A stretch of DNA of 62,296 nt, counting the filler, from Sluysia triapertura (taxonomy: Eukaryota): assembly GCA_046118255.1 (NCBI GenBank). It is 5 parts of 5 records of this genome, joined end to end, with 100 filler letters (N's around TTAATTAATTAA, not from the genome) between each part and the next. Parts side by side here need not be neighbours in the genome. Positions count along the whole stretch, not along the records: positions 1 to 16,385 come from JBJNIA010205482.1; 4 more parts are not named here. One strand, written 5' to 3'. The notes beneath the pieces were generated by a model. That model ran no database searches. It had not been told where the DNA came from and saw only the letters and a list, made by a program, of their open reading frames with translations. Shown here one piece after another: positions 451-61,987 of the stretch. The position numbers were made by a program, and so were the translations under genes. The first letter of the stretch is position 1. The number at the start of each line of letters is the position of its first letter.

Positions 451-679
451 TCTTTCTGTATAAACATCGTTGTCCTTGTACTTGTTATAGTGGTGTTCAG
501 TAGCAGATTAGAGTAACAGGTTTTGCATTTAATTTGACATCTCTCATTATCTGGTGTCGAATTGCGACTGTAACTGTGGATCCATTTTGAAAAGACCCTC
601 TTGATATCAGCATAAAAATGTTTTCGTTTTAGGCCCCTCAAAATAGTAGTAAGATTTTTTATGCATATAAAACGAAAGT

Positions 680-1195
680 CAATTTTAAAAAAAACTTTAT
701 TCGAATCCACTATTGGTTGCCAGGGTTGGCATAACTTAAATAAAATCAATAAACGTTGACGCCCATATTAACAGAACTGAAAAAATAACAAATAAAATAA
801 ACAAAATGCAAACCCCTTTTAGATCCCCCTAACATTTTATTTTAGCTGATTTCTAAAAAATAAGCTCCAGTTTCACTGTTTTCCACAAATGAATTGAGAT
901 AGCATTCCTAAAGCTAAGAAGTCTTAAATTTGTTCTGCTTTTTGTACTGATTTTTTCTGCAAAAACGTGACTGCTTATATAGCAGTTTGACAATAATTTG
1001 GGGGTTTAAAAATGGAAATTGGACATGACGGAAATTAAAACTGTTCATTCATTAAGCCGACAAATTTTAATGAATACATTCCAGTATTAATTTCCGTGTG
1101 TGTGTCCAATTTCATTATCATCTTAATTATCTAAAGATAATGGGATTTGTGGAAAACAATCCACTTATCTTTTCAACATCATTAAATTAAAATGT
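680..1195 (-). pseudogene. Second decayed paralog of the ankyrin-gene C-terminal domain; inverted homolog of 5745-6250
   Basis: Clear nucleotide similarity to the reverse complement of 5745-6250; peptides KISGLFST, HVFAE, SFRNAISIHLW, LKGVCIL (vs IKGICNL). Confidence 0.6.
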
Positions 1196-1228
1196 ACATT
1201 AATTGTATGATTCAAATTAGCAAATTTG

Positions 1229-3770
1229 TGCAATTGAGAGGCAGAAAATTAAAAATTTTGAAATTTATACTTTTTATGGGTGTGTTATTTATATTGTATG
1301 TGGCGTTGTTTGAATGTGTCTTCGTCGTTGATTATCTCTTTGAAATCACAGATTTGATGGCAGAAAAGTAAAAAATGAGTTTTGCCTTTTTTCATAAAAA
1401 GTTGTATTAACAATGAAAACCAATTATTAATTAAAGAGTTATGTATTATGAATGTTGGTGGTATGATAACATGTACGTATCACCAATTAAGTGGAATGAG
1501 TTGAACGAAAAGGATAAATGAACAAACATAAATTTAATGAAACATGTACATCAATCATTGTAAGAATTTGTGATAATTGTGATGTGTTGAATTTGCAAAT
1601 GATTTAAAATGAATGGTTGTGGGTGTTTTTATGTCTTACCGTAATAGATTTATAAATTATGAAGTGAACCGCCACTGTACGTCATATATTAGGATAGTGC
1701 AATAAAATAAAATATGGAATAAACTGTGCGGATATGATGATTCTCAACTATTCAAGAGCCACAAGAAAGGGATGGAGAAAGCTTTATAATATTATCTTAT
1801 AATTATGAATTTAAATATTTTGTGTGTTTATTTACAATGGAAATATTCAGTCGATCAAGCAAAATTCGAATAATCATAATCTAATAAAGCTAAGTTGCTT
1901 AGATAAAGTGGTTTTACTTATCTCTGGAGGACAAACAAAGTGAATAATGAGCTTAAATTAAAATTTCGATTAAATAAATAAATTTTATTGACTATAACAA
2001 ATACACAACTTTGCTAATAATTTGAAAAAGAACAAAAAAATATTGTTTCACACGCAAGCATGATATTATGTCCGTGAAAATGAGGTACAGATGTTCGAAA
2101 TGAGTAGAATTTATTTTTGCATCATTAAATTTCAACTTTTTATGAAAGGAAAATATCGTTTAATCTAAATTTGTTTATAAAATTTTAATTTAGTAATTTA
2201 TTCAAATTGGAAATATTTTTGTGCAGTAGAACTTTAGAGAGCGTGTCAGAAGAGAACTCAGTCATATTCACAACGAACTCGTTTGCTGATTCCTTTTTCT
2301 ACTCCAAATACTCAAATGCTTAACAAGGTTTAAGATTACCTAAAGGTTCATAAGTCAAAGGCTGCTTCGATTCTTCCAAACCCATTTCCAGCTTCCGCAA
2401 GGTCTAAACACCTTATAAAGGTCTTTAGAACGGCAAGGTATTTCTCAGTTATCTAAATTTTCATGATTCTTAATCCAACAATATTTACAATGTTCTATCA
2501 CTTCGTATCAATTTTTCCTTCATTTTGTAGTTCTCTATGTTTCTCCTTAATCTTCTGGTCCACATTTGGGCAATCCCAAGAGAAGGATAATAATTTTAAA
2601 TTGTTATTAAAATTTGATATACAACTGTGAGTAAAGAAAAAATTAATTTAACGATTCAATAAAACACCAAATAATATAAAAATAAATTAATTTTTTCATA
2701 TTCATAGCGTTTTAAATACCAAAAGTGTTGTCTGTATCATTCTTACGTAAATAATGTTACTTAAATTTTAAATACTGCATCAAAAGTTATAAATTTATTC
2801 TGCAAAAAGAGAATCTTTTCATTGTTTTATAAAGATCAGATATTTGGTTCATCAATTTCCAAAATTTGTTTTAGTTGAATTCCAAACTACTGATACAATT
2901 AACAGAATTATCAAAAATAATGCATCAATTTTGCATGTAGTAATGCTGAATAAATTAGTCTGAGTAGAAATGCGGACTGTCGGAAAACCTATACACTAAA
3001 TTTTGAAAATATTCACACAATCCACATAATCATACGTGGAATCAATTATTAGAAAAATCTTAAGAATATGAGAAATGTCTTAAAAATCAGAATTATTAGA
3101 AATACGTATTACACATTCGATAATAAATTAACTTTTGTTTGAATTTGTACTTGAACAGCATTTCGATTTAATGAAAAAATGTACCATTAGATATTAAATA
3201 TGTAAGTGGTTGGGTATGATACGATATTGTGCTTGATAATGAAATACAATGAAAGAATATCGACAAATTAAATTGCAAATAAAATAAAATTTTTTATTAT
3301 AATTTAATTAGTTCTGTTAATATTTATCTATATGAAAATGAGTTTAAATGTGTGTATCCACTCGATAGAATTCCATCATATTTCGTGAAGACGGTTGTAC
3401 TATAAACACGACTATGAGTAATTTAGATGTTGAATAGTGGATCAATTCTACTAATCACATTCAATTGTACAATTGGAGAGGAAAAAAATTAAAAATATAC
3501 TTTTTATGGGTGTGTTATTTATATTTTATGTGAAGTTTTCGTTGTTGATTATCTCTTTGAAATAACAGATTTGATGGCAGAAAAGTAAAAAATAAGTTTT
3601 GCCTTTTTTCCTAAAAAAGTTGTATTAACAATGAAAACCAATTATTAATTAAAGAGTTATGTATTATGAATGTTGGTGGTATGATAACATGTACGTATCA
3701 CCAATTAAGTGGAATGAGTTGAACGAAAAGGATAAATGAACAAACATAAATTTAATGAAACATACATCAA
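1229..3770 (+). repeat. Direct duplication of ~300 bp (1229-1555 and 3468-3770)
   Basis: Near-identical text from tactttttatgggtgtgtt to atttaatgaaacat in both places. Confidence 0.9.
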
Positions 3771-7075: not shown

Positions 7076-7924
7076 ATATTAATTACCAAATACGCTATTT
7101 TAATGAGCATCTTGACAATATCAAACAGAGCAACAATAAGCAATATTGAAATTTGTCAGTAAATTTATGAGACTGAAATTATCAAGGCATAATTTGATTA
7201 TCATTTGGGCGAGGGCTAGGGCTAGGATTAGGACGCGCAGTCATCATTTATCCAATGACAAATGAGTGGAATGTACACAATGAAACACAACTTGTAAACT
7301 GCAGACACACTATTGAAAATTGATGTATGTGTGTGATGCATTGTGATAAAAAATTTGGACTATACATTTACTGATCTGCAGTGACAGGGAGTTAAATAAA
7401 TATTTATTCAGCATTTAATATAATATTATTGTTTGCATTGTATCAATGTGTTATGAAAATTACTGTGGTAANNNNNNNNNNNNNNNNNNNNNNNNNNNNN
7501 NNNNNNNNNNNNNNNNNNNNNNNNNNNNNNNNNNNNNNNNNNNNNNNNNNNNNNNNNNNNNNNNNNNNNNNNNNNNNNNNNNNNNNNNNNNNNNNNNNNN
7601 NNNNNNNNNNNNNNNNNNNNNNNNNNNNNNNNNNNNNNNNNNNNNNNNNNNNNNNNNNNNNNNNNNNNNNNNNNNNNNNNNNNNNNNNNNNNNNNNAATA
7701 AATCATAATATGTCTTAGTAATCTCAAAATATCCTAAAATGAAAAATAAATGAAAGACACTTAATTATCACATCAAGGCGATTAAGAATGAAATGACAGA
7801 GGAGTAAGTAAGAACTAAAAACATAACTTCATTATATAAATGAATAAAGCTGATATAGAGCCAACAAATATTATAGCATAAAATTAAATAATATATAGAC
7901 GAAATTGGTAACGTAATAATAATA

Positions 7925-8340
7925 TGTTAATTTATATTGCGCTCATATCTACTACAAACTAAATAAATCATTTACTATAATATTTCTGAAACAGAAAGAA
8001 CTTTGCCTTTTTATTAAATATTTAATAATCTTCCAGTAATTTGACATTCTCTGGTAAATGGTTGTATATTTTTGGAAACATAAACGCTATACAACCTATG
8101 ATTTAGCTTATTATCACTAGGGATTCTGTATAAGATTATTATGTCTCAATGAAATATTTATCTTGGTTTCCAATTTTTGTATTATTTCTAAAAGATATTC
8201 AGTACTTCTGTAATGTAAGCATTTGTAAATTATTGTCATCATTTTGAATTATATTCTTGCTTTTATTGGAAACCAATGTATTTCCTTAAGATAAGGTGTT
8301 ACATGAGATCTTCTAACATGGTTAGACTAAGAATAATTAA
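7925..8340 (-). mobile_element. L2/CR1-clade LINE 3' end
   Basis: SHVTPYLKEIHWFPIKARI*FKMMTIIYKCLH is the L2 ORF2 C-terminal HWLP motif; same 3' UTR as 18590-18970. Confidence 0.85.
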
Positions 8341-8845
8341 TATAGAATGAATCTAACAACAGAGTAGAGAAAATAATATGAATATTGAAAGTTCTATCTA
8401 ATTTTGTCCGCTATTCAATCAGATAATGATATAAGTCTTTTTATTGATGAATATCAACATCCAATCAAATTAACTGGATTCATCGTTAGTTGAATGTACT
8501 TACGAAAGGAATGGAATATGTTTTAGTGATAAAATCCATTTGATATTATTGCATAATTGTATCTGAATTTTGATAAAAGTTGTCTGATATAAAATATAAA
8601 ATATAAAAATTATGCCAATCCAATATTACTATGCTTTGCAAACATAAATTGATTATTAGAATTGGATAAAATTAATTATTTGAATAATAAAATGAAATTA
8701 AAAATGACTCTTATGTAAAGACTTTTCTAAAAAAGCACATATCAGAAGAGATGTCTTCCTTATTTTCTTTTAGAAACAAAAGATTGCAAATTAAATTTTG
8801 TGGTAATCTTTGAAATTAAAAAAAGATATTTCTGTAGAAAACGTG

Positions 8846-9087
8846 AGGGGCGGACTAAGGCCTAGGCAACCTAGGCAAGTGCCTAGGGCCCGTAATTTTT
8901 GGAGCCCGAAAATTAGGTTTTTACTATAAATATATTTTTTTTCCTTTTTTTATTGTAATCCGATAATTAAATAGAACTATATACTATATGCTTTAAAACC
9001 AAACTACCAAACGCAAAGTATGTGTCTTGACAGAAAAACTAGGCCCGGAATTACAATGTTGCCCGCTATAGCCTTAGTCCACCACTG
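8846..9087. mobile_element. hAT-type MITE (~242 bp)
   Basis: TIRs AGGGGCGGACTAAGGC / GCCTTAGTCCACCACTG; imperfect 8-bp TSD aaaacgtg / aacatgtg; cctaggc subterminal repeats. Confidence 0.8.
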
Positions 9088-11449
9088 AACATGTGCTGAT
9101 TTTCTTAAAGAAATTAACAATGAAATGAACTGTTTCAGTAAACTCGAAAAGATGATGAAAAGAAATGGTTTTTCAAATTAAAAATAATTAAGATGAAGAT
9201 GTTGCAAATAAAGATTTAGTAGCTTATTTAGAATTTGGATGCAACAGATTTGTTATAACTTGTAAAACTTCTTTTTAATTATTTTTTATAATTTATTATT
9301 TATATAACATTATTTCCACAGTTGAAAATAGTTTTATATAGTGCTGCATTCAATAGCCTTAAAAGAGTAACAAAAATGTATCTTTCGTCGTCATATTAAT
9401 CATTGTGCGTTTTGAATTATGCTTACATTAAAAGAGTTATATTAATATATGTTTAATTTTCTTTTCGTTTTTATAAATTTTAATTTTTATCGAATATATA
9501 CTAAAGAAATTTGTAATTAATACATATTAATCAAAATTTAATACAATATCATTATAAAAATAAGTTTTTTTTTAAAATCAGTCTTTAATAATAATATTAT
9601 ATTTACAAAAATAAGTAGCACATTATTAATAAAACTAATATTTAATATTTGGAAAGTTTATTTTGAGTAATTTTAAAAAATAATTTCCAAACGTGAAAAT
9701 GGACTCATATATATTGGTTTTTATTGGATTCAACCTACGATATACTTCGCGTGCAAAGAAGTGAGTATTTATTATTAACATTATGCAAGTGTTTTCTCAA
9801 AATTAACTGCAAAATATCTAAGGGTTAGTCCGCCTAATATCCTCGATTTATACCAATTCTGGCGACATTATTAATATTAAACTTAATATTATTAATAAAC
9901 TTAATATTAAAACTTAATCTATACTGTATTAGTTACTTAGCGATTCAAAAAACTGTATATTAGTTACTTTAAATTACGTTATATTTATGTTCCACTAGCC
10001 TTCTTAAAGTCTAGTTCAGAAAAAATTATAAATAACACTAGCCTTTTTAAGGTCTAGTATAAAATCAATTTGTGAATTTAAAAATTTCACTAGATGTCTT
10101 GTTAAAAAAATTAATTTACTTTTTAAAATTTATTAAAAGAAATCCACTCTTAACTTATATTTTTAAAAATAAAATGCTTATAACTATTGCTGATATCAAA
10201 AACATTTATTACAACTTTAAAATAATGTTAAAATAATAATATAATTTTAATGTTTCACTCAACTGTGTTGGTGAATATTAAATTTAAAGCGTTATTATGC
10301 TAGTCGTCTTAATGTCTAGCATTAAAAATAATTAAATACTTTACGTGTGATTTTGGTATTCCTATTAAAATGAATACTTTAAACTTAATAATAAAAATTA
10401 CTTTTTAGACATGGAAATTAAGCTGTGACTAAAAATAATCTTCTTTAAAATTTCTTATTGCGACTTTATTTAAGTTTACCTAAATTTTGCTTCTGATATT
10501 TTTCTAAAAATTTAATTCTATTTATACTAAATTAACTTACCTGAATTTTTTAAATTGATTAACTTAAACAACACTTATAGAAATAAAGAACATAATTAAA
10601 ATTTGTTTTGAAAATTTATTATTATATTAAAATTAAAAATATGAATTAATATTTTATTAAAATGTATTTTAGTTTTCTATATAATAAAAATAACTATTTT
10701 AATAAAATAAGATACACAAAATTTTACAAGCATATCAAAATAATCAAAATAAAATATACATTATGACATCAATTTCGCCTCAACAATTTATATTGTAATT
10801 ACTATACTATTTGTAGAACAAAATAGCCACAGAAATTAAGTAAATGTTATACCTTTTATTTAATTATATTTTTTAGAATATCTGAAAATAGCAAGAGTGC
10901 GGACGATAGTGACAACAACAGAAAAAACATAATGATAGTACCATTAAAGCCGCCGATGAGAATGTAGTTGATAATAAATATAATTTATTACTAAACAATT
11001 TAAAGAAGAGACCTTTTGTCTCTCAAAATATCCATTTAGTGAATAATTTAAATAATATTCATGAAATTATAACAAATAATTTAAGTAATTGTGGTGTTCC
11101 AGCTGTCTACAATAATTTTATTGCTACTCACATATATAAAATTATACAGAATTCATCTAAAAACATTCTACAAACCAACACCTCATTGTATCTAACATGA
11201 ATCATAAATCTCCAATTAAACCATTAATACTAAAATCATGATAACTTCTTGTTTTAATTTTAAAGCTAATTCTATCATTATCTCAATTATCGCCTTCATC
11301 AACACCATTATGAAGAATACTCTTAAAACTCTTCAGTCCACATTTTGTCATTTTTCTACACAACTTACTCACCAAATACAATGAATACAATGAATATTAT
11401 AGTTAGAAAACACTGTACTTGCGGCACACAGACAAAAAAAATTAAAAAT

Positions 11450-11720
11450 CTTATGACCATATTTGGTATTTTATTCATTATTTGACCCTTTTCTTGTAAA
11501 GGAGTATGTAATAATATTAAGTCACTTTTTTTAAATTCCACTTGATTTACTTTACTATCATAATGTTCTCTCCTTCATTATTTGTAAATAATTTTCTAAA
11601 TATTTTGATGTATCAGGTATCAAGGATAAATTCACAGGTAATCTACGTTGACGTGTTTATAATAATGATATTTTTCATAATTGTATTTTATTGTGTGGCA
11701 GCCGCTCTTATGCAAATATC
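11450..11720 (-). mobile_element. Gypsy integrase C-terminal fragment
   Basis: RLPVNLSL...HYDSKVNQVEFKKSDLILLHTP resembles the YYD..F..GDLVLL region preceding the GPY/F motif. Confidence 0.5.
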
Positions 11721-12948
11721 ATAAAGAAAGTTACTGATCAGAAATTATTCTCAAACAATTTTAATTAAATTAAGTAATAAATATATTTATAAATGTTTAT
11801 AAAACTTTGGAAAATATTGATACCTTTATTTCAAGGTGCAAGAATATTACAATCCTTTTTGTCTTTTGTCGACCACAACAACATAAATGAACATTTTATA
11901 TTTTATGAAAATCTTAGACACAAAACTGTCAATAATTATGCGGTGGTTCAGCCCACAACTACGTACACATCACATAAATCACAACAATCAATCACAAAAA
12001 TGCATTATAGCAAGTCTTATCCAATACCACATTATTCATCGTTACAAAATTACAGATGCCTAATAAAATTTGTTTTATTACACTTTAGATCAAAACATTA
12101 AACACAACACTCGTTGTCATCCTGTTATCATTATGACGCAACATATTTTTATTGTCTCGCAATTTTCAATTTTACACTTTTACAATTTATTATTGTATTG
12201 TTTATGTGCTGCAAATCAAGTTATTAAAATTTATAGGGCGATAATTCAGCTGGACAAATGTCACGTTAATGTCGTAGTGGAATATATTCGAAGTTTTTAT
12301 CTTGAGATTATTGAATTACAGAACATTAATAATTCTAAAGTTAATAATGTTAATAATGATTCTGTGTCAAAATAAAAGTACTTTATTTAAAAAAAATATT
12401 CATTCTTCCTAATTATGCGCCACCGCCTCCACCAAATCAGAAAAATCACATTCAATTCATGATGAATGATATAAGCCTTATTTAGTGATACATCATCAAT
12501 CAGCCAAATTGTCGATTTTAATATTATTATTAATAATTTTTAAGATTATTTATACAGTACTGAAACTATGCATATGCTGAATTTAATAGAAACTCCTCTA
12601 AGTGCTATTTTTTGTAATACTTTAATAGAATTATAATAAAACATAATTATTATTTATTTGTATTCGTTAAATTTATATTTCATTTTAATTTTATATTTTG
12701 GTGAAAGATGCTTTCTGTTTCAGATTAATATAATCAAATGTTTTTAAAAAAATTGAATGAGATTCATTTTGAATTTTTAGAAAATATTTTTATACAAATT
12801 TTGTAATTTCTGTTTTAGATTGTTATGCATTTTATTCGTTACAATAAATAAAAATTTATTTTAATGCATTGTTAAATGATTAAACTGTAAACAATTGGTT
12901 TCACTTTTTATTGGTGTCCTTTCTCTGATTTCAAAAGATAAACGAAAC

Positions 12949-13986
12949 ATGAATAAAGAAATCGATTATCTAGACATGAATCTAATTTCACACAACTACC
13001 ATTGACTCCAGGGGTGGAAACGATAAAATTTTCCAATGACGAAGATATTTTAAAAATGTATCGATTCTTCTGTTATCAAAAAGTTCAAATTAAAGACTTA
13101 TCATGGTTTACTGATAACAATGTAGTATAGCGAATAAATGAAAGCTATTCGAAGCAATAACCAGATTTGATATATGCTAGAGAAAATATTGATATTTTGC
13201 AGATACTGGATTTAAATTTTGTATTTTTCCAATGACTCGATTTTTAGAATTACTTAGCAACAAATTTAGTGAAAATGAACTTTGTGAAATGGAAAGAAAC
13301 ATGGTAAAAGTTATTGATTCTATTAATTATTTATGAACTTTTATTTTAATGGAAAAGCCTGTAAAATTCAAGTGTCTACGAAATTGCAAAGTTCCTTGTA
13401 GATGTTTGCTCGCGTCATAAAAAATTCTCTGTTTTACCTTATGGTAATTTAAATGTTCTCAGTTATTGTGTTTCTGTTTTCGTCGTCAATGAATATATGT
13501 GGAAAGATTATTTCCTTAATTTAACTGGCTTATCACGGGAACATTTCAATGACAACATTTACGAATTTTTGACTACAGTTCATTACTTAGTTCTGAAACG
13601 AGGTAAAAGTTTGCGTATCATGATTCATAAAGTACACAAAAGTAAATAAAGCTTGTTATGAGAATGACAAATTTATCATTTTAAAAAGCGTTTATAAATT
13701 CATAAATATAATGTGTATTTCGTTTAATAAAGTGTATGAGAAGACGAATAAAGTTTGCTCTGACAAAAACAAGTTCATCATTTTAAAAGGTATTTTTAAA
13801 GTTATAAATATGATGAATATCTTGTTTATTAAAGTAGGTGAGAGAAATGGTAAAGTTTGTTCCGACGAGAGTGAAGTTGTCATTTTAAAAGATCGAGAAG
13901 AAGGGATACAACAAATGCTAGGCAGAACATTGATCCCAAACCAGTTCGAAGTGGTATCGGTGGTCTATTTAAGCGCTACATGTTAA
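12949..13986 (+). pseudogene. Intronless cyclin-like pseudogene with a C-terminal 34-aa tandem repeat
   Basis: Across frameshifts: EDILKMY, LSWF, KLFEAITRFD, ILQIL, FPMTRFLELLSNKFSENELCEMERNMVKVI, YEIAKFLVDVC...F, W...LNLTGL. These follow cyclin-box helices 1-5 and the C-terminal cyclin fold in order. Confidence 0.65.
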
Positions 13987-14209
13987 TTTTTTTTGTTGAA
14001 TCACGTTCTATTTCAAGAGCGACAGGTGAACGACAACTGTTGATGCTTAATGAAGAAAATTTTTGTCTTGAGATTTTTAATAATAATAAAATTTTCATGT
14101 GCCATAAGCACCAACTTCATAATTATATTTATGTGAATGAAGATGATAATTTTTGTAATCAATTAATAGATTTAATGTTAAATATCAAAATAACGATGAT
14201 AGTAAAAGT

Positions 14210-14572
14210 AAACTTAATAATTTCAATACCACGTCATCCACAATACTTTACCTTTTATTTTATGCATGTGACCATTTCTTAATAATTTACAAGTGTGCAT
14301 AATTGATTCTTTATCATTATTCAAACACTTAACTTGGTTAATAATGTTTTTAAGAAGTCATTATTAATTAATGGTCTTTTATCTTATTACTTTCTTTTAA
14401 TTGTTAAAATTCTTGTTAACTTGTTTGCTTAATTAGTAGCAGCTTCACCAAATGCACTATCTATAGTGACAATGAGAGTAACTAATGGTAAAATTCCACC
14501 ATCTTTTAATATGTTCCTTCAGATCTTTATTATCAATAATGCAGCTTTATGGAATTATCTCTCAGTTTCCAT
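14210..14572 (-). mobile_element. Polinton/adintovirus-like small core protein remnant (adenovirus pX/mu-like GG(I/F)LP motif)
   Basis: LKDGGILPLVTLIVTIDSAFGEAA (GGILPL at 14483-14500); downstream KIKGKVLWM resembles KGxGLYL of polinton core proteins; several stops. Confidence 0.55.
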
Positions 14573-14701
14573 TAATTATAAAATAAATTGTGATAATTTA
14601 TAATTTAATATAAAATAAACATTAATTAATTTGAATTAAAAATATTATGCAAAATGGTTTGATAAATTTGTATAACTGATATTTGTGAAAATCAAAAAAT
14701 A

Positions 14702-15110
14702 ATGCTTCCTAAGAAATTCTATCAATAAATAATTATAAAGATTAGTAACACATCGGGACGGATGATGCGAAATCTCTTTTTTTGGAGTTTCATGCAACAT
14801 ATCGTATAAAAACCGCAATTATGAGTAAGTGAAACAATACAAAGAAACATTGTTGTTGTAAACAAGCACGTATAATTTCAACAAAATTTCATCACGTATC
14901 GTCTTCAATGTCTTAAAATAGTGATGCTAAAATCAAAGTTACATTTTTAATAAACCTAGTGATATTGTACATAGAGATAATTTACGATAGTATAATAATA
15001 ATTTGGATGATATTTGATGATGTTTTAAATACGAAAAATTAAGAATGTCCAAGTCATTTCACGAGTAGAACACGTAAATATTGATATATTTATTATGCTA
15101 TCATTTGAAC
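14702..15110 (+). mobile_element. Polinton/Maverick A32-type DNA packaging ATPase pseudogene
   Basis: MLP...ISNTSGR..RNL (degenerate Walker A, from 14741), F(F)NKPSDIV, WMIFDDVL (Walker B, 15004-15027), HFT-SR-HVNIDIFIML (A32 motif FxxGRHxNI, 15055-15100). Confidence 0.7.
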
Positions 15111-15902
15111 TTGAAATAGTAATTGTTTCATTAATGTAACTCCAAGTCAGAGATAGAGTTTATAAACCATTTATAATCAATATTTGAACATCACCATTAT
15201 TATTGTGTCACTAGCCACTAGAAGACAAAATACAATTATATTTATTTAGACAAATAAAATGAAATATTTCTGGAGTACTTATATTTCATATATCCAGATT
15301 TCACATCTCGGTAGCGTAACAAAGAGGGTGCTTTAAGAACTGCCAACTAAAAACTTCATTCAAACAAATTCGAAAAATATCTGGTAATAATTCGATATTT
15401 GAAAATGGTGATTGTTGTGTTTATCCGTTTACTAATGTCCCTCTTTAATAACTAAGAAAAAATCAAATAAAACTTAATCTGGATATATTCTTTTATAATA
15501 GTTATGCAGATCAAATCTTTACATAAATATAATTATATAAATCAACTTCTTTACATCACAATTATAGTTAATAGATCAAACTTTTTGTATAGTAAAACAC
15601 TTCTTTAAATCAATTTCTTTAATAAATTATTGTCTAACTCTTTAAAAATTGCAGGAGTTACACAACATAAATGTCGTTACCACAAATAAAATATAAAATA
15701 ATAATAATAAAACAAAATGAATCTTAATTCTCTACTAACCGCGTAAACTTATTTTGTCTTAATGTTATTGCTGAAGAAAAATATTCAATGAATCCAGCGT
15801 CCTTATATCAAGAAGTTCTTGACTAATTTGTCAAATATTACTGTTGTCGCTTTTTTTTGGATTGTTATTGTGATTTTATGTAAAAAGTTAGCTGTTTATA
15901 TA

Positions 15903-16074
15903 ATATCGAGATAATTGCCAGATAGTCGGGAATTCAATCTAATTATTTTGCATGTCTACTACAAGCTATTTTCTTAGAGTCGGTTTAATGCCGACTCATT
16001 ACTAAAATGGAATTGTAATATTAATTTCCAATGAATTTCCGACTTTAGATTGCCTGACAATTATCTGGAGATAT
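15903..16074. repeat. Imperfect ~170-bp palindrome (foldback/MITE-like)
   Basis: Central hairpin GAGTCGG-tttaatg-CCGACTC; outer arms agataattgccag...agtcgggaattca mirrored by tgaatttccgact...ctgacaattatct. Confidence 0.7.
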
Positions 16075-16385
16075 GAGTTTTGTGAAGAACAAGCCCATAT
16101 CTCTTTAAAATAATCAAATCACAATTTAATATCATAATTGGCATTAAACAAACAGATATAAAAATGCATCATCCTAATCTACTTATATTTATAATCTAGT
16201 ATAAAACTTCTTTTAATAACAATATTTTATATCACTCTATAACGTCACACGTCAATCTCAATAACGTATACTGACTTGTTTCTTTACAAGTTTTAATCTG
16301 ACGTATAATTTATTAATGCTCAGACATTGGAACGTATTTAATCTTTAATTTTAAATTACAAAATTAATTAAAATAACTAATTTTA

Positions 16386-16485
16386 NNNNNNNNNNNNNNN
16401 NNNNNNNNNNNNNNNNNNNNNNNNNNNNNTTAATTAATTAANNNNNNNNNNNNNNNNNNNNNNNNNNNNNNNNNNNNNNNNNNNN
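16386..16485. other. Artificial 100-nt contig spacer N44-TTAATTAATTAA-N44 (also 28592-28691, 39846-39945, 51129-51228)
   Basis: Identical length and the same six-frame-stop 12-mer in all four gaps; linker-less gaps at 7472-7696 and 23674-23885 are ordinary scaffold gaps. Confidence 0.97.
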
Positions 16486-19896: not shown

Positions 19897-20779
19897 CTGA
19901 ATAATAGACGAATTCGTATAAACAACTTGTCATTGGTTAAATAATTGTTTACTCCAATTTAAGTGTCAGTTTAAAACGATTGTTTCACTTATATGATGAG
20001 TAATACTCAATTTCATTGGCCTAACACATTTTTGAAACTGGTCATATAATTGGTTAACCGAATTATTCGTTTTAATATCAATTTACGAAATTGTATTATC
20101 TAGACCAAAATACAAGCTGATTTTAAATATATAAATGTAAATTTTGATTGTCCTCTATAATCGAGTTTTCATTTAGAATTAATAGTGGTGTTTAAAATAT
20201 GTTTGCTTGTACGCTGGACCACAAAGACTAGCTTAATTCGCATTTATAATAATTTAACTCATTTTATTTGTACGCCAGACCATTAATGCTAGCTTAACCT
20301 ACAATTATAATAAGTTAAAAGATTATTGCCTGCGTGACTGCATACCGAATAATAATCATTCTGTGCAAAATTAACATTACTTTAAAACCTTATTTAACAT
20401 CATCAAAGTCGTCGACGTCGAGACTAACTAAAGGTTGTAGTAAATGCTCGCCTAGCTGAGTAATTAGCATCGGTAAATGCTGATGATTACTAAAAGCACT
20501 GATCCAGAAACTTGGAGCAGATCGTGTTAAGTTCACGCGTTCTCTAATTTTGTTGTCCGCGTTATTAGTATCATTCTGTAATTCATAAATTTGTTCTACT
20601 TCAGCAGTTGAGGTCGTAATCTTGATAATTATCGCTATATCATAAAATCGAAAAATTTCACTCGTTGCTAAATTGTGTGAATTTTAGTAGTCGTTTTAAA
20701 CAAAATAAATAGCAACATGATGCGTTGCGGTAATTTGTTTTAAAAATTTTATTTTATTATAATTATTGCAATTATTACC

Positions 20780-20822
<43 letters not shown>

Positions 20823-23800
20823 CTTATTTTTTATCATTGTTATTATTATTATTATATCATTATTATTCATTTTAATTATTAAATCTCGAAATATTATCAA
20901 TACTAGAATAATGTTATGCTGAAAAGATTTATTACCATAATGATATTGACCCGATGATCCACTTAAATAATACGTACAACATACATTCGAGAGGTCTTTT
21001 CTACTTCCACAACTAATATTGCACACCAGGCAGTAGAAATTGATAATACATGACATTTAAAAGTAGCTCATAGACAACGAAGAATTATTCAAATATCTTT
21101 GGAATTGGCGCTACGAGTTGTCAAGGTCGAATATGATGTTACTGGAACTTGATTGGTTTGTGCTAAATGATATGTTAAGTTTTGTTGATCTCGAATAGAA
21201 GTTGGCGACAGAAAGTAGTCAGACAATGCAGTAGCCATGACAATATCGTCACTGTCTTCAATATTGTTCTTTACGTTCTCATTTGCGCCTCATCCAAATG
21301 ACAGGCTCTTCTTCAATAACTTGTTTTTTAAAAATAACTCTTCAATTCCATTTCTATTTCATACTTCTTCTGATCTTTCTTTGCTCTATCTCGTTCACTA
21401 AGTTCCAGTTCTTGAGTCACTTCTTGAATGCAAGCCTCCAATTTCTTGTTCTACAACTCTTGTTTTAATTCAGAGATCTCAGTGTTTAGATTTATCTTCA
21501 TTTGAATATGTTCTTCGGCTTCCTGAGAATAACGATCACCGGTGATTTGCAGTTCTTTCAATTTCTGACTTATTTCGGAAACTTCCTTTTGAAGTGCTTC
21601 GTTCTGAAATTTTATTTTATTTATTCTTGTTTCGTTTGTTCCGCTTATACTTTTCTTCTTTCATTGTTCATTTTCTTGTTGAGATGAACACCTTGTTGAA
21701 ACAGCACCTTTTTAATTTCGATATTTCATCATCATACTTAGAAACATTTGCTTTAATTTCCTTAATCAATTTCTTCTGTATTTCCATTTCTTCTTTTTCT
21801 TTGTGTTGCAATCGTTGTTGGTTATGTTTTTTTGTTTAAATGTATTGTTTTGTGTATTTAATTTAATATGAAATAAATTAAACGAACCTTTAGCTGTGGA
21901 ACTACATTCAAAAAGGAAACATATGTATTAATAAGATTTTTTAGTTCTTTAAATACAGTCTTGCCACTCCTCCGGTAGCGTTTGTACTATTGTTTCTTCC
22001 CGATCTCGAGTACGAGTGTTAAGAGAAATTACGAAGATATAGAGAAGTGAGAGTAAGAGAAAGAGTTGTATTAGGGAATTATGAAAAGTTAAACTTGCTT
22101 TTATAGAAATTTCATTCTTCGAGTTATGAGTTTGGTCACCACAATCATTATTATTATCATTATTATCATAATTATTATCATTATTATTAATATTATCGAC
22201 AACATCGCTAAGATTACCTTACTTAGTATTATTTCCGGGGCTAGATATTCAGGAGTACCACACAAAGTCCATGTGCGACCTTTAATACGCTTTGCAAAGC
22301 CCAAGTCGGTAATCTGAAGTATAACCAAAACCATATAATAGCAGAAATGATACAAATACAAATATAATAATTATAAGCATGTTTTACTTCAAAGTAAAAC
22401 TAGTGTAGCACAACAATATTTGGACATTAACGACGATATGATGAAAGAAATGAAGAAACTGAAGGCAGCATCTTTAATGACGTCATTGATCATTTCGCTT
22501 CTTCATGTACTTCCTTACGAAATATCATTTTCCAAAATATGTTATTTTCTCAAAATCTGTCAACTACTCCGACTAAGCTTAACAAATTCCTGTTTTTGAA
22601 GCTGTACCATCTTACAAATTTTTGTTAGAAGAATCATTCTCAAACCATTTTATGAATGTTGCTATAAATTTAGTTTTTTAATAGTACGTAGTCAAAGGCT
22701 TAGAAAAATTTTTAATTGGTTAACCCATACTTTGGATAAGTCAATTGAGCAAAAGCCAAATGATTATTTAATTTTCATCGTATAACGTCTCTCCCTAACC
22801 AATCTCATATATTACAGTAAATATATTATCATTTTGCTGATACATCTTCACTATGTATTATTTTTGATACTCTACACTTTATTTTTTCATATCCAGCTTG
22901 CTAGTTAGTATTTGCTTGTGTTTGTTGGTATTTAATTTGATGCACAATATTTTCTGAGTGCACTCTTTCTTAGTTATTATTTCTTAGATTTGTAAATGTT
23001 TTAATGTTTTTAGTGCAATCTAATTTTATCAATATTTATAATATTAAAGATTTACTCGAACTATCTTAATTACCACAGTATTGTCAGATTCTTAAAATAT
23101 AACTTAAAAATCAAGATCGCTTCGATGGCTTTATTTATTTATTTTTATTCTAATTTTCTTACCTTAATATATCCGTCTCGATTGATGAGGATGTTCTCCG
23201 GCTTCAGATCCCGATAAATGACATCCAAATGGTGCATATATTCGAACACCAGCACCACTTGCGATGCGTAAAATTGTGCCCAAGATTTTCTATAAATAAA
23301 AATTGATAAATACGAATTTAAATATACAAAGATAGATTAAAAAGATGTAATAGAAAGATAACCAAGGAACAAATAAGTTGGACAAAGTTAAAATCAGTTT
23401 TTAATGAACTTGCAGCAGTTAAATTCAGTAATATCATTGGTTTTCTTTCTGGATAATGACATTTCTAAATTTGAAACTATTTTTTGGTTTGTTAAAATCG
23501 AATGGATTCAATTGTTCAATTCAGTCCGAGATTGACGGAGTGTTATTATTGATGCAGTTGATTATGTTTACATCACAACGATGTGCGAGGTTGCGACAAT
23601 TCACTTATTGCATTCGCACTAGACTGGACCTGCTTATTCTGTGATGTATGTGTGAATCAGGATAATACAAGCANNNNNNNNNNNNNNNNNNNNNNNNNNN
23701 NNNNNNNNNNNNNNNNNNNNNNNNNNNNNNNNNNNNNNNNNNNNNNNNNNNNNNNNNNNNNNNNNNNNNNNNNNNNNNNNNNNNNNNNNNNNNNNNNNNN

Positions 23801-26141: not shown

Positions 26142-27494
26142 CATCAACATAAGAGACAATATTGCAATATTTTTATGACCGGCTCCGAAATAACCATTCA
26201 ATCAGGTTAATTTGTCAGATTTTTCTGTGATCACTTGCATAAAAGAAATAACTATTTCTATCGTTAGAAATATAAAATCACTTCGTTGATGTAAGTTATA
26301 AATAGAGTGGTGGCCAAATTATTAGACTATGCAGAAAAATGCTTTTCTTTGGCTTTCTTAATATTTGGTACATGGAAATTCTCCAGACATGAATCCCATA
26401 GAAAATCTGTGGGAGATTGTCGAAAGGGGAGTTACTACCCATAAACCAACCACCACGACGGGACTAACTGAAACCCTGATAAAAGTATGGCATCACAATG
26501 ACGAGATCAAAGACTTGTGCTCCAAGTTCATTCGTGGCACGCCTTTAAAGATCAGGAAATTATTGGATAACAAAGGAGGGCAAACAAAGTACTGATACAA
26601 CAGTTGTACATATTTGATTTGTAGTAAATTGTGTTATTTCATTCTACATGAATAAAATTTCTGTATGTTTTGGATCTCAGTAGTTTTATCTATTATTTTA
26701 CTTTCATCAAAATTTTTTGGAGAAAGTAGTTATTTTCCAACATTTTACATTTTCCGTGACAACTGTCGGTAATAAATGGCACTTGAAAATGTTGAGTTTT
26801 GTTACAAAAACGGACGTCTTTAGTCTAATAATTGTGCCACCATTGTAATAGTATTAATAAGTGCTGTACTACTAACGGATATCGACTCATTCTTCGTAAA
26901 TGAGTGAACATTTCTCCCCCGCAAATGAACTCCAGACCGAAGTAGAGATAGCTGTTGTCCTAGAAAATAGAGACAAATTGTCAATTTATTGTGCCATCTA
27001 TAAATGAAAAATAATATTTTATCGTGTTTCAGACTGTCTTAGTGTTCATAACATTGATACATTTCATGATTGTGTTTTATTATATGTGATATCCACCTTC
27101 ATGCAAACATTATAAGGAAAGTTATCTCATTTAAAAATGATTTTCAAACAATTTTAATTAAATTAATTAATTAATATACTTATAAATTTGTTTTGTTGAA
27201 CTTTATAAAACATTGATCCCTTTATCTTCAAGCTGCAATATTCTTTCAGTCACTTTACCTTCTGACAACCTCAACATTTTATATAAAAAGATACATGTGA
27301 AATATTTAGTTATACATATTTATGGAAAGGCATTTCAATAATGCAGTTGAAATAGATTTATTATTTAATGGAAAATAAAAGTTAAACAAAATGACCTTGA
27401 ACACAAACTCCATAGCAACCAGAAATGGATGGTCTGTAGATCGCAGTATTCGCTTCTCATTCAATGTGTGCTCGACTTGCTTCATGCGGACAAT
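19774..27494 (-). CDS. PRKACA: cAMP-dependent protein kinase catalytic subunit (PKA-C), partial gene of five internal exons: 27396-27494, 26877-26959, 23163-23289, 22218-22313, 19774-19896
   Basis: All five exons have AG/GT boundaries and splice in frame to [176 protein letters not shown]. Lengths 99/83/127/96/123 nt match my recollection of PRKACA exons 4-8. The symbol denotes family, not strict orthology. Flanking exons not found in the window. Confidence 0.97.
20340..20640 (-). pseudogene. SET: SET/NAP-family histone chaperone pseudogene inside a PKA intron
   Basis: [10 protein letters not shown]...[55 protein letters not shown] vs recalled SET IEHIDEVQNE...[54 protein letters not shown]; stop at 20390-20392, ~20-codon deletion, no intron in the aligned span. 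Confidence 0.8.
21100..21830 (-). mobile_element. Decayed coiled-coil ORF, probably retroelement gag/ORF1
   Basis: K/E/Q-rich heptad-like text ([14 protein letters not shown]...[15 protein letters not shown]) with stops; no diagnostic motif. Confidence 0.35.
22218..22313 (-). CDS. PRKACA: PKA-C exon (activation loop, DLG...[15 protein letters not shown])
   Basis: ttcag|ATTACC...AGTAAG|gtaatc, 96 nt; contained in ORF 22101..22361. Confidence 0.97.
22700..22920 (-). mobile_element. RTE-like LINE RT fragment
   Basis: QAGY...LVRE...IDLSKV resembles the QAGF...IDxxKAFD RT motifs. Confidence 0.4.
23163..23289 (-). CDS. PRKACA: PKA-C exon (catalytic loop YRDLKPEN)
   Basis: tatag|AAAATC...ATTAAG|gtaaga, 127 nt. 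Confidence 0.96.
25495..25725. repeat. (ATT)n-type microsatellite; others at ~20780-20860, 22145-22195, 23886-24050, 26100-26140, 27905-28015, 37096-37150, 42051-42100, 55644-55708
   Basis: Direct reading; explains the poly-I and poly-N ORFs. Confidence 0.95.
26305..26845 (+). mobile_element. Internally deleted Tc1/mariner element in a PKA intron
   Basis: ~24-bp imperfect TIRs gagtggtggccaaattattagact / agtctaataattgtgccaccattg, TA on both sides; ORF 26365..26595 [11 protein letters not shown]...KGGQTKY is a Tc1 transposase C-terminus. Confidence 0.92.
26877..26959 (-). CDS. PRKACA: PKA-C exon (hinge, [10 protein letters not shown])
   Basis: ctag|GACAAC...TATCC|gttagt, 83 nt. Confidence 0.95.
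27396..27494 (-). CDS. PRKACA: PKA-C exon (alphaC helix, HTLNEKRIL)
   Basis: tttcag|ATTGTC...TTCAAG|gtcatt, 99 nt. Confidence 0.95.
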
Positions 27495-28324: not shown

Positions 28325-28497
28325 CATTCTTCTTTAAGACTTCAATAAGTCTTTTAGGCATTGAGATAACTGGATATTTCATCTCCTCAAGGCTGATTTC
28401 TTCCCAATGGCTGCTTTCAAATCCTTTACATTGTCCAATTGGCGTCCATTCTGGTAAACCTTCCGAACGAGTAAACCCCAGAGGTTCTCAATGGAGT
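28325..28497 (-). mobile_element. Tc1 transposase C-terminal fragment
   Basis: LNSIENLWGLLVRKVYQNGRQLDNVKDLKAAI...ISMPKRLIEVLK. Confidence 0.85.
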
Positions 28498-28501
28498 TTA
28501 A

Positions 28502-28591: not shown

Positions 28592-28895
28592 NNNNNNNNN
28601 NNNNNNNNNNNNNNNNNNNNNNNNNNNNNNNNNNNTTAATTAATTAANNNNNNNNNNNNNNNNNNNNNNNNNNNNNNNNNNNNNNNNNNNNACTTTGACA
28701 TTACTGATGACGGCAGGTATGTTATTGATTTGCATTGTTTGATACACCCAATCAGAGTTCAATACCACTAATTTCAATTACAAAACTCTGATTGGGCAAG
28801 TAGCTAGAAAAATCATTTGAAGCTAAAAATAGAAGTATAAAAATTTTTTATCAGACTAGTTATAATTTTTTAATACAGAGTCAAAATTTTCAATA

Positions 28896-30769
28896 ATGGA
28901 TGATGAATCTGGATGTACAATTTTACACTTAGTATCAAGGATGAAACCATCTAATTCATTACAACATATATTGCCTAAATCATCAGAAATTGATAAAAGA
29001 AACCATGGACTCAAAATAGTGTTATTATCGGCATTTAATTATGAGAATACCAATGCAATTGAATTACTTTGTAAAGATGCAGCTGACGTTAATTTAACTG
29101 ATGCTAATGATACATCTCCTTTACATTATATAGCTAAATCTAAGTCTGATACGAACGAAACAGAATTATTAAATTGCTAATGAAATATAATGCTAATATT
29201 GATATTACCGATAATGACAAAAAAACTTCATTAATGTGGGCTGTCTGCTCTAATAACAAAACCAAAACACGTTTTTTGCTCGAATCTCATGCTAATAAGA
29301 ATTTAATAGATGAAAGAGGAGTAAGCATTCTCCATTATGCAACTAATTACGGTAACAATGAAATAATAGAAATGTTACTTGATAAACATGATTTCAACAT
29401 CGAGCGTCAAGATAATAATGGATGTACACCTTTAATATATGAATGCATCAGATTATTATTATTAGATAAGGGAGCCAATCCCTATTCCGAAGACAATCAT
29501 GACGTAACGACGAAGCATTCTAATATAAGCAAAATGGATGTTTTTAATACAATAATATTAATGATTAGGAAATTTTGTGCGCACGAAAATCCTATATTTG
29601 GTATTATATTATTAAAAGATCATAAAATGATAATTAGACAATTTAATATACATAAAAATAGTCTCTTTAACTTATTGCCATTAGATGAAGATGAAATGAC
29701 GACAAGACAATCTGATATATACAATTATGAAATAATGATGAAATATTCTGACGTACATAAAGATGTTCTCCTTAGTTTAATGTTATTAGATGAAGATGAA
29801 ATCATGACAAGACAACCTGATGTACACTATTATGGAATAATGATGAAACAATTTTTTATGCGTAAAGATTATGTTTTTAGGGTAGTATTATTGAGAAGTT
29901 GTAAAGTAATGATTAAGCTCTTTGATGTACATAGTAATGATATAACTATTAGACGTTCTAGGATAAGTGAAGATGATCTATTTAGTACGATATTAGTGTG
30001 CAATTATAATAGAGCAAAATTACAATCTGATGTAGTTGAAGGAGAGAACATCCTTAAGTTCATCGATAATGTCAAGTGGCCTGATACAATCATATCGACC
30101 GTCGCAATGGTCCACAGTCACGAAATATCTGGGATTAGTTTAAGTAATATTTTTATATTAAAACTACGTTACTGTATTTATTATACTGTTTATGTATTTA
30201 TTAGTTATAACATTTCTATCAATCAAGAAGTGAATGGAATCGAGATTCGTGGAGAAAAGATGTTTGCAGAAGAATCTAAAATTTTTAATATATTTACAGA
30301 TAAATTTATAGTTCTTAAATTAGTTCCCAAAATGAATTTTTTATTTAGTTTATTAATAAATAATTATAGGTCTTATTTTTACAGAATTAAAGTTAATTGC
30401 GAAACAAACAAAAATGTTCATATTGAATCTATAGTTTATTATAAATCATTTATTAAAGGAATATGTAATTTGATAAAGACCTCAGCCGATATCCATAACT
30501 TCATCTTTCGTAACCATCACATAGTTTCTAACATAAAGTCACGTTTAAATTTAATATTCTTCTAAATGACTATAGTGAAAATCACGAACACTCTGCCTTC
30601 TTTCAATTCAATAAACGTGCTTATACAAATTATTGTCGATGTACTTAATAATAAACTCGGACAGTTAATATTCTATGGGGTTAAGTCTAAGGCCATCTTT
30701 GGCAAATTATCAAACCATATTATAAACCACTCGACACTACATCAACACAACATATTCTCCATAGGTTAA
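28896..30769 (+). pseudogene. Intronless ankyrin-repeat protein with internal 23/12-aa repeats and an unknown ~230-aa C-terminal domain; frameshift near 29174-29180 and in-frame TAA at 30563-30565
   Basis: Ankyrin motifs GCTILHL, DTSPLHYIA, KTSLMWAV, GVSILHYA, GCTPLIY across ORFs 28896..29180 and 29174..30565; ORF 30566..30769 continues in the same frame directly after the stop. Confidence 0.85.
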
Positions 30770-33312: not shown

Positions 33313-33480
33313 AACTGTATCTCTTGATGTAGCTTCATTTATTAACATTGTCAGACTTTAATTCTTACAAACCATAGTTACTTACAGTTGTTATTGTTAT
33401 GATAATCAACATCCATACCAATAATGCAAAAACGAACCTCAACATAACCTAACACAATCATTGAGAAAATCGAAAACACT

Positions 33481-34600
33481 TGTACAAAGTACAACAAATG
33501 ATGTATATAATAAATTGATTGATTTTTACAAATGATGTAGTACAAATGACGTATAATAAATTGATTAATTTTTATTGAATTTTATAATTTATTAATAATT
33601 GTTTTGTTTAAATTATCAAACGGTTTTGTTTTAATTATCGATTTTTATTGAATTAATTATTGTTATAATTATTGTTTTGGATTATTTTCGAATTGGATTT
33701 AAATTATTGTTTCTGGAATAAACTAACGTGAGTAATTTTATTATTATTATTAGTACTTTTAGAATTCCGTATGGCTGTTTACGAGGTGTGATCAATTCGA
33801 CCTGCACCAATCTTATCTCTCATTCATCGTTAAATCCCATCACTAAGGCTAGGAAAATATTACAATTATATTCATTTCCACCTAAATCCTTCACTTGCGA
33901 GCAGCATGCTAAGGATACAATATCCATTTTTGACGAATCATTTTTACCACAGAAGGTCATAATTAATACTAATAAAATCACATCTAATAATAATAAAGAA
34001 CTTATTCCTTTTTCTTCTTTTCCTTCTTGTACACACAAACTCACAGAAAACAAATTCTGCACAAATAATAATTGTAACATCTTTAACATTGCAAAACCTA
34101 TATTGCATAAACACTGCATGCGCAATATAGAACATATGGACAAAGCAACAGTCAGCAGCAATCCAAGAAAAATAAAACAAACTTCTCCAATAGTAGAACA
34201 ATCGTCTTCTCCAAATGTCGACTTGGATGATATTGAAGCATTAAACATCAATTTGGGCGAAGATTTTGGCCATTTAGCATCAATACTAGGCGAGGATGAA
34301 TTCTTCGATTGCGTGGGTACTATCGACCTATCTTTCTAAAAATGAAGACCAATTTTTTGGTCGCGGAAACTTATGTACAAAGTACAACAAATGATGTATA
34401 TAATAAATTGATTGATTTTTACAAATGACGTATAATAAATTGATTAATTTTTATTGAATTTTATAATTTATTAGTAACTGTTCTGTTTTAATTATCGATT
34501 GTTATTGAATTAATTATTGTTATAATTATTTTTTGGATTATTTTCGAATTGAAATTAAATTACTGTTTTGTGGAATAAACTAACGTGAGTAATTTTATTA
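33481..34600 (+). repeat. ~230-260-bp direct repeats (33481-33741, 34374-34600) flanking an unknown ORF
   Basis: tgtacaaagtacaacaaatgatg...ggaataaactaacgtgagtaattttatta occurs twice, ~893 bp apart. Confidence 0.9.
33728..34339 (+). CDS. Hypothetical ~200-aa protein with Cys/His cluster and acidic C-terminus
   Basis: 203-codon open frame, higher GC than the flanks; true start uncertain (possible 35-nt intron GTGAGT...TTTTAG at 33728-33762). Confidence 0.4.
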   Translation: MSNFIIIISTFRIPYGCLRGVINSTCTNLISHSSLNPITKARKILQLYSFPPKSFTCEQHAKDTISIFDESFLPQKVIINTNKITSNNNKELIPFSSFPSCTHKLTENKFCTNNNCNIFNIAKPILHKHCMRNIEHMDKATVSSNPRKIKQTSPIVEQSSSPNVDLDDIEALNINLGEDFGHLASILGEDEFFDCVGTIDLSF

Positions 34601-34879
34601 ATTACATATAAACTTTAATATTTTTAAAATTAATCAAATTTAAAATCAAACAACTTTTGTTTTAATGAATAAAATAAATATTTTGTTTTAGTCTGACCAA
34701 GGCCAGTTAGATTAGGTGTAAATACATAAAATTTACAACTTAGACACAATTTTGTACAACGACGTTAATTAATTTTTATAAATATTTCGTTGAAGCATCC
34801 AAGAGCTAACTTTTTTAAAGATTAAGAAGAATTTTTACAAATCCATACAGAAAAGAAAATTGAATATAAAAACTTACCG

Positions 34880-60293: not shown

Positions 60294-60565
60294 ATTATTG
60301 TGGATATGGAGTGGTTAGTTATTTTCGATTTCTTGGTTGGCTGTGCAATTTAAATTTATTAATTTTACTTATACAAGTATCAATTATGGAAATGCCTTTT
60401 ATATTGCTTGGTCCTGACACATTTGAAAAATGTAGAGCTGACGAAGTAACATTGAAAAGTGATATGGAAAATAAGTTTTCTGAAGCATTATATTGTTCAA
60501 ATAAATCAACTGCAATAGTATCTAATAACGTTTGGAAAAAAGTACTAGAAGTTATTGAAGGTAAG
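60294..60565 (+). CDS. Transmembrane channel-like (TMC family) protein, single internal exon covering the first TM segment
   Basis: ttgcag|ATTAT...GGTAAG|gtaagt. YCGYGVVSYFRFLGWLCNLNLLILLIQVSIMEMP matches the TMC motif HFGxGVxSYFxFLRWLxxLN; the end VLEVIEGK resembles the TMC DLLxGxG motif. Neighbouring exons not resolved. Confidence 0.8.
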
Positions 60566-61987
60566 GTAAGTAATTGAAACAACTTACTTTCATTTTTATG
60601 AATTTGAATGAAAATGGATTTTAAATTTAAAAATTAAAATTTCGTTTGAAAAAATTAATTTTAATGACTGTAACGAAATGAGTAGAAAATTTTTTTAAAT
60701 AAAAAATAACAAATAAATTTATTGAAGGATAATTGTTTTAATAAATTAATTAAATCCAAAGTATGTATAATTTGTAAAATATTGTGTAAATAATAATTTG
60801 TAAAAAGGTATTGTTAATAATTTGTTGAAAAATAATAATTCTTTGTAATAATTATAAATAAGTTGTTAATAATTTGTTGAAAAATAATAATTCTTTGTAA
60901 TAATTATAAATAATAATCATAATAATTATAATAATTGTAATAATTGAAAAATAATTAATTAGAAAGGATGTGTGTAATCAACTGTTTATCGTAATAAGTA
61001 AACTGTTTATTTTATATTTTATATCCGTAATATTTTTAATCATAATAACTTGATAATTTAATTATGTGAATTGTAAATAATCGAAAAAATAATATAATCA
61101 ATTGTTTTTAATTTATCATAATCATTGTTTATAGAATAATTAAATAATAATTAGTGAAAATTTAATCATAATCATTGTTTATAGAATAATTAACTACCCA
61201 GAGCCTCCTGAATGCCATATAAACTACTAAATAACTTTAGAACCTTAAAAAAACTTTAAATAATTGTTTTAAAAAATATAATATCACAAAATTATATCAC
61301 CTAACAACAAATGATCTTATTTTAATATGACCCAAAAAATTTATATTATAGGTATTAATAAAATTAAATAAAATAACAGAAATTACCAATTGAATGAATC
61401 TTCTAACGTAAACATTTTTTGTTGTGTTTAAAAATATTAATTATTCCCTTTTTACTTTTGTCGTCCAATCATTCCTAAATTCACAATCAGGAATTACTCT
61501 TACACAAATCGTCAAAACTTTCTTTAAGGATATAACCGACTACATGGTATAACTTGTCAAGCAAAACATAACAATTCAATGAACAATCAACTCTTATTTT
61601 TCTTCTACTCTACTCGATCAATTTTTTCATGTAAGACATTACAATAACAATAGTTATTACTATGAACATACTTTAAAATTATGGATTTAACTTTTGCTTT
61701 CGCAATTTAATTAATTTTCAATTCCTCGCTCATGAGACTCTAGATGTTTTTTCTCTCATCACTCTGATTCTTACTTACTTATTTTAATTATTGTATCAAA
61801 TGCATCTTTAATAAACTTTTGAATTAATGCCTGTCAAAATACATCGCTAATACCGAAACTATTCTACTATAGATACAACATTTTGTAATACGATAGCATG
61901 TGTCGAATCGAAATGGTTTTTATTTTGCAAAATGATACCCATATGTATTTTGTTGTATGATTTTTACGGTAAGTCCACTCTATTTAA

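Follow-up and report, generated by a model that had tools for sequence, protein, structure and literature searches.

A decayed Polinton-type remnant and an adjoining cyclin-like unit in the genome of Sluysia triapertura

In the genome of Sluysia triapertura, a decayed Polinton remnant of about 1.1 kb lies beside a decayed cyclin-like unit. The explanation held here to be moderately probable is that the remnant was cut off by a host-cyclin pseudogene unit which had multiplied separately. A sequence-only reading of this DNA had seen an endogenous polintovirus lineage which captured a cyclin. Its polintovirus origin stands strongly for the pX-like gene and, by motif and synteny, for the ATPase, but not for the cyclin as part of the element; a captured cyclin in a Polinton lineage is not supported. 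The best reading is an ordinary one: an animal genome rich in repeats, where Polinton debris adjoins a family of pseudogenes.

The window, meaning the whole stretch of 62,296 nucleotides that was analysed, is AT-rich (~25% GC), eukaryotic and interrupted by assembly gaps. The cyclin-like unit, pX and ATPase all lie on the contig at positions 7697–16385 (Table 1). The host is intron-bearing, because a protein kinase gene has two exons intact at 22215–22320 and 23160–23290 (minus strand; Pfam Pkinase E=6e-7 and 4e-12); by its motifs this gene probably encodes a PKA-type catalytic subunit.

Table 1. Features of the locus, in positions of the window
Feature	Position	Strand	Remarks
Dispersed repeat	11470–12211		upstream of cyclin-like unit; second partial copy at 27042–27287, 75% identity
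Two inverted CCAAT boxes and an inverted CHR-type hexamer	12894–12935	+	sites 12894, 12910 and 12930, upstream of ATG
Decayed cyclin-like gene (A/B-type N-box end and C-box)	12949–13650	+	interrupted by stops and frame breaks (several); uncertain start
102-nt (34-codon) tandem repeat	13612–13891	+	~2.7 units; starts at cyclin-like C-box end
135-codon open frame	13875–14282	+	origin unassigned; end overlaps pX tail on opposite strand
Decayed Polinton pX-like (Adeno_PX-type) virion protein gene	14222–14572	−	internal deletions; from profile and shuffles
Decayed A32-type packaging ATPase (likely)	14702–15110	+	core 15007–15091, Walker B to RH-x-N motif; ends undefined
Very high-copy repeat	15450–16385		right-hand end of Polinton remnant; then gap 16386–16485

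The Polinton-type remnant

Polinton references were gathered by a motif scan of metagenome contigs, which gave at least 120 loci and at least 118 ORFs with the ATPase motif; the loci are mostly short (358 kb in total in 120) and come from other hosts. They are regarded as Polinton-type because representatives bear Pox_A32, Adeno_PX, PLA2, DJR capsid and rve domains; the pX references are assigned to Pfam PF05829, and a reference ATPase matches Pox_A32 at E=1e-9. Two pX profiles (28 and 25 ORFs) and an ATPase profile (50 distinct ORFs having Walker A) were built, and a custom frameshift-aware aligner scored the DNA, with shuffles and further stretches of the window as controls. One compact family of these metagenome elements (L002, L012, L014 and L063) keeps a fixed gene block comprising a two-TM (SLATT-like) gene, a fibre-like gene with an F5/8 domain, protease, pX and ATPase.

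The small GGILPL gene had been likened to the pX/mu-like core proteins, and this likeness holds: its identity as a decayed Polinton pX-like virion protein is strongly supported by sequence. The pX profile finds here its best match in the window, at 39.5 bits, against 34.1 for the next real peak and a shuffled maximum of 24.6 (366 kb shuffled); the score was reached by none of 200 local shuffles in any of six settings. Three separate pX motifs are collinear from ~14572 to 14222, with the GGILP motif at 14500 (minus strand), and the likeness to Polintons comprises GG-x-LP, the C-terminal K-x-PL...FLK-x-LL and CG-x-G. The gene has 6 stops in 84 codons. Its relatives have ~205 residues and the window copy is short by tens of codons; the ATG at 14572 appears to be internal to the pX protein.

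The second gene is likely to be a broken A32-type packaging ATPase of a Polinton, an assignment made by motif and synteny. IFDD lies at 15010 and HVNI at 15071 (plus strand), in different frames. What carries the ATPase call is a single occurrence of its motif (IFDD-x12-F) across all six frames of the window, with strand and side relative to pX as in 30/30 reference loci: pX and ATPase are head-to-head in every reference locus holding both, among the at least 120 matches listed, and the window has the same head-to-head layout of pX (−) and ATPase (+), as originally described. The ATPase profile has its best match in the window at 15004–15063 (E=0.25). Its references were themselves selected by the IFDD-type motif, and with them the target scores z 3.4–7.4 against local shuffles and z 6.6 against 6.46 for the top one of 84 control segments; with nine motif columns masked no signal remains (z −1.0 to 0.7). 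Motif, strand and layout of the proposed A32-type ATPase are as claimed, but Pfam Pox_A32 has no match at the window ATPase and no signal lies outside the motif. IMG/VR returned no match to the ATPase motif and no relative of the window ATPase frame or the cyclin ORF, nor any of a reference ATPase or pX.

The pX gene and the likely ATPase form a divergent pair like that of the Polinton/Maverick (adintovirus) module represented by L002, L007, L044 and L063 (PMC8502044). Unlike in Polintons, both window genes are dead and shortened by deletion, a cyclin-like unit stands at the protease site, and no protease, fibre-like gene, capsid, PolB, integrase or TIR is detected in the window. The profile searches for polinton MCP, pPolB and protease put forward with the polintovirus reading found nothing specific near the locus: profiles of protein-primed PolB, DJR MCP, protease, fibre-like genes and further families have no specific match there in this window, in which the contig stops at 16386. 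No Polinton integrase (rve) lies near the locus, and the sole integrase match, at 50.3–51.0 kb, comes from an LTR retrotransposon. No terminal inverted repeats or target-site duplication enclose the locus; the proposed TIR check likewise found none around cyclin and ATPase in the window.

The gene after pX is the protease in 19 of the 22 reference loci which extend past pX, among the at least 120 matches listed; 8 further loci stop at pX and are not counted in the 22. In the window an adenain-type protease is undetected at 13800–14260 (z −1.0 to 0.1; rank 90 of 124 bins), and the cyclin-like unit occupies the site where the protease usually comes after pX. Several other candidates were discarded: on the minus strand, a protease or a fibre gene beneath the cyclin unit gave no score and PP2A-type HEAT repeats gave no match, and the high scores of many profiles at 21.1–21.4 kb and 4.6 kb are composition artefacts.

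The cyclin-like unit and its repeat tail

Cyclin ancestry of the unit at 12.9–14.0 kb is considered probable, on signals which are weak. The earlier proposal of a cyclin-like gene is upheld in part: the ATG at 12949 (plus strand) is present and a weak Cyclin_C signal is found, but Cyclin_N has no Pfam match at the locus. The signal lies in the frame 13365–13646 (94 codons), for which Pfam returned two families; Cyclin_C, which had been named as expected before the search, covers profile positions 24–90 of 119 at E=0.07 (0.078–0.1 in a further scan) and 13.6 bits against a cut-off of 22, and ranks behind an unrelated family at E=0.042. A cyclin profile was built from the best 120 of 2043 matches, mostly B-type, in a search seeded by the viral CDK–cyclin fusion L121. 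Restricted to the range from helix 4 to the C-end, which was chosen post hoc, after inspection, its score was beaten by 0–1 of 500 shuffles and by 0 of 112 control segments. In end-to-end mode the N-box score was reached by 4–12 and the C-box score by 1–8 of 200 shuffles, and the two boxes stand in the correct order. Motif spacing is 34/37/37 codons, compared to reference medians of 40/38/34.

The unit has in common with cellular A/B-type cyclins (PF00134, PF02984) the EME-R helix, K-F/Y-L-x-D/E, W-x3-L-x2-T and LR-x3-H/K-K at near-canonical spacing. In contrast to them it is broken and below all family cut-offs, no N-terminal regulatory region is recognised, and 34-residue repeats together with another open frame lengthen its C-terminus. 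The seed fusion L121, a separate observation, occupies 481–3027 (minus strand) of a 314-kb viral contig and has 849 residues; it alone is a true cyclin among 7 matches to the cyclin-box pattern.

An alternative, considered unlikely, is that the unit at 12.9–14.0 kb derives from some other decayed multi-copy gene whose helical pattern mimics a cyclin box. It would account for the want of a Cyclin_N match, for the failure of tblastn with 120 cyclins to hit the locus, and for a whole-length cyclin score which 7 of 78 and 3 of 78 control segments match. HHalign places the cyclin frame at rank 4 of 532 scored segments with 2.8% probability; phmmer against 1.84 billion proteins gave 3 matches, all false and repeat-driven, and a PDB sequence search gave none. 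Set against this are the prior prediction of Cyclin_C as one of only two families returned, the scores of N-box and C-box above most shuffles and in the right order, and the helix-4-to-C-end profile together with the motif spacing. Further searches added no assignment: Pfam scans of single frames across 11.5–16.4 kb, with stops as X, matched in 0 of 30 frames, a homologue search with the cyclin frame gave 29 candidates of which none scored, and neither open frame matched in the ESM Atlas at ≥0.9. A single-sequence model of the cyclin frame has five helices at pLDDT 55, and Foldseek with this low-confidence model found nothing at E≤0.001.

The gene had also been called intronless, which is borne out for about 13286–13610 only, there being no intron in this stretch because the motif spacing leaves no room for one. 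By eye, the ATG stands just before the putative cyclin box; the destruction-box region would therefore be absent. Of 6098 sliding 70-nt windows, 20 contain the CCAAT/CHR combination that Table 1 lists upstream of the ATG, and these fall at 6 places of the window. The combination might, post hoc, be a remnant of a host cell-cycle promoter, a weak suggestion; inverse CHR sites are functional in mammals (PMC4176359). Neither mark expected of a recent retrocopy of a host gene, its own target-site duplication or poly-A, was detected. No A-run is found at 14180–14300, and candidate ends of the unit have only AT-rich 8-mers in common; decay might have erased both a poly-A and a duplication.

The locus had been presented as three tightly packed, similarly decayed genes, a picture which its finer structure does not bear out. 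The tandem repeat at 13612–13891 is accompanied by an open frame at 13624–13986 (plus strand), and the supposed spacer at 13986–14210 lies within the 135-codon open frame, which has no Pfam, PDB or Atlas assignment. Nor is the decay even. Within 13340–14290 three frames stay open over 135, 120 and 94 codons (0 of 1000 shuffles), while pX (215 of 1000) and the ATPase (804 of 1000) do no better than chance; breaks also affect the cyclin's 5′ half (51 of 1000). A possible, degenerate zinc-finger-like pattern was seen by eye at 13975–14075 (plus strand), where look-alike contigs are densest; Nanos, RING and nuclear-receptor zinc fingers, tried in this 3′ module, gave no match.

Elsewhere in the window, at 28866–30565 (plus strand), a broken ankyrin-repeat gene precedes a 105-nt tandem repeat, after which comes a long open frame. 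This layout, a host domain with a repeat-expanded tail, resembles that of the cyclin unit.

Copies of the unit and the origin of the arrangement

Evidence for further copies comes from a single public run (X1), which is possibly the window's own source. On 12100–15440, 690 contigs were aligned, 533 of them <95% alike. Summed contig depth, which is not equal to copy number, is 126–1106 over 12884–14227, 14.5–18.7 over 14340–14563 (the pX core) and 21–35 over 14900–15347. From 14216 to 15467, taking in pX and most of the ATPase, one contig of 1,252 nt runs with zero differences at depth 14.5, other unique contigs having depths of 10–24. The cyclin unit itself comes in pieces of 223–508 nt, overlaid by contigs with 11–17% other letters; up to 44 contigs lie at one site, densest over the 3′ open frame at 13875–14282, and contig joints skip 58–336 nt in the tandem-repeat area. 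Across 11.5–14.25 kb, copy density is highest at both ends and lower inside.

The pile of look-alikes ends at ~14230–14250, as estimated from bins, and so enters the aligned pX tail by some 20 nt; reaching ~14245, it overlaps the codons at 14242–14222, the last that align to pX, and other copies could share this junction. Further piles at 14564–14675 (182) and 14788–14899 (865; 23 contigs at one site) show that the ATPase region, too, has relatives. That the cyclin unit has many look-alikes is well evidenced, that these lack pX less so, because contigs show presence and not absence. No listed contig piece of the run spans from cyclin to ATPase. Co-occurrence of the two genes in other copies, on which cyclin capture had been made to depend, is not borne out: the look-alikes mostly stop at pX, as judged from short contigs.

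We infer a course of events, the movement of the unit included, as follows. An old Polinton insertion would have decayed by point changes and deletions, and a high-copy repeat would have cut the scrap on the right. The left side would have been cut by a unit in which a cyclin piece, with its C-terminal end expanded in tandem, is joined to an unrelated 3′ module, and the arrival of this unit may have removed or replaced the protease side. The unit was likely copied as DNA, via duplication or a gene-capturing transposon, because its flank and promoter-like motifs are kept and there is no poly-A. It is unlikely that any part of the locus functions at present. The unit resembles Pack-type gene-capturing transposons (Pack-MULEs) and duplicated pseudogenes in being a multi-copy, decayed piece of a host gene with a chimeric 3′ end and an uneven copy density, but the window has no identified element ends or target-site repeat.

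Two other explanations join the cyclin to the Polinton. According to one, to which we give little credence, an intronless cyclin stood tail-to-tail with pX in a Polinton lineage, which would have used it to push host cells into S phase, the locus being a decayed copy. It draws on the tight tail-to-tail adjacency, on the intron-free stretch at 13286–13610, and on the destruction-box region that would be missing if the ATG, placed by eye, stands just before the box; the look-alike pile also extends into the pX tail. That the cyclin 5′ half is as broken as pX speaks against the favoured reading. Precedents exist in Maverick cargo and in Klebsormidium, where PMC5294986 places a U-type cyclin next to a packaging ATPase within an endogenous NCLDV region. 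Against these points, the look-alikes mostly end at pX, the usual place of the protease holds no protease and is taken by the unit, TIRs and other core genes are not detected, decay is uneven between the parts, and no cyclin is found in the ORFs of the at least 120 reference loci (best E=0.21). A fuller version, in which a Polinton replaced or displaced its protease with a captured, destruction-box-less cyclin with a repeat-expanded tail and the unit later spread alone, is given an equally small chance. Slimmer still is the chance that a non-viral gene-capturing transposon took the host cyclin piece together with the end of a Polinton, most of its copies keeping no more of the latter than the pX tail and the locus being a longer version or the donor site. 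Copy density does peak at both ends of 11.5–14.25 kb, and the right edge overlaps the pX tail; yet the two ends are without a joining inverted repeat, and the overlap with pX is ~20 nt only, within alignment noise. A search of the locus for marks of a capturing element, namely a hairpin module, TIR, twin palindrome or target-site repeat, yielded none.

Published systems bear on the cyclin-carrying Polinton in several ways. Viral cyclins are described for herpesviruses, retroviruses and baculoviruses in PMC5294986. The Klebsormidium case shares with the window a cyclin-like gene by a packaging ATPase, in the window a likely one, but the window ATPase would be Polinton-type and a viral origin of its cyclin is putative. 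Nematode Mavericks with WASP proteases and KRMA kinases (bioRxiv 2022.07.12.499685) indicate that host-type cargo genes are possible; as far as the accessible text goes, their cargo lies in the interval from left TIR to integrase, often with introns, in near-complete elements, whereas the window locus is incomplete and without TIRs, and the word ‘cyclin’ does not occur in that portion of text. Adintoviruses have pX-like domains and genes for Rb-binding ‘Oncoid’ proteins, by which they are proposed to steer the cell cycle, with no cyclin gene in the accessible part of that account (PMC8502044). A word look-up in the accessible text of bioRxiv 2026.10.13.758929, PMC9952930, PMC11131425 and PMC8547959 gave nothing relevant. 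No published case of a cyclin in a Polinton, Maverick or adintovirus was found, with supplements and most subscription papers outside the scope of the search. Cyclin capture has so far been described in herpes-, retro-, baculo- and giant viruses; a captured cyclin here, if true, would make the first cyclin-carrying Polinton, and a second route to the cell cycle besides the ‘Oncoid’ proteins.

Other genes and repeats of the window

Several further fragments were seen away from the locus. Those at 26300–26600 (plus strand) and 28340–28500 (minus strand) carry N-x-IENLW, a Tc1/mariner-type motif, and neither has a Pfam match at E≤0.01. The open frame at 60272–60577 (plus strand) resembles a TMC (transmembrane-channel-like) exon in a motif and has no Pfam match. 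At 20390–21820 (minus strand) lies a decayed, possibly chimeric gene, in which a NAP/SET fragment (Pfam NAP E=2e-4) comes after a charged coiled-coil-like stretch. The pol gene of a decayed LTR retrotransposon, with RNase H-like and rve matches, occupies 48216–51014 (plus strand). Finally, a duplicated module with repeated ATGACGTA-type motifs is found at 33471–33766 and 34364–34623, and its first copy runs into a 205-codon open frame at 33722.
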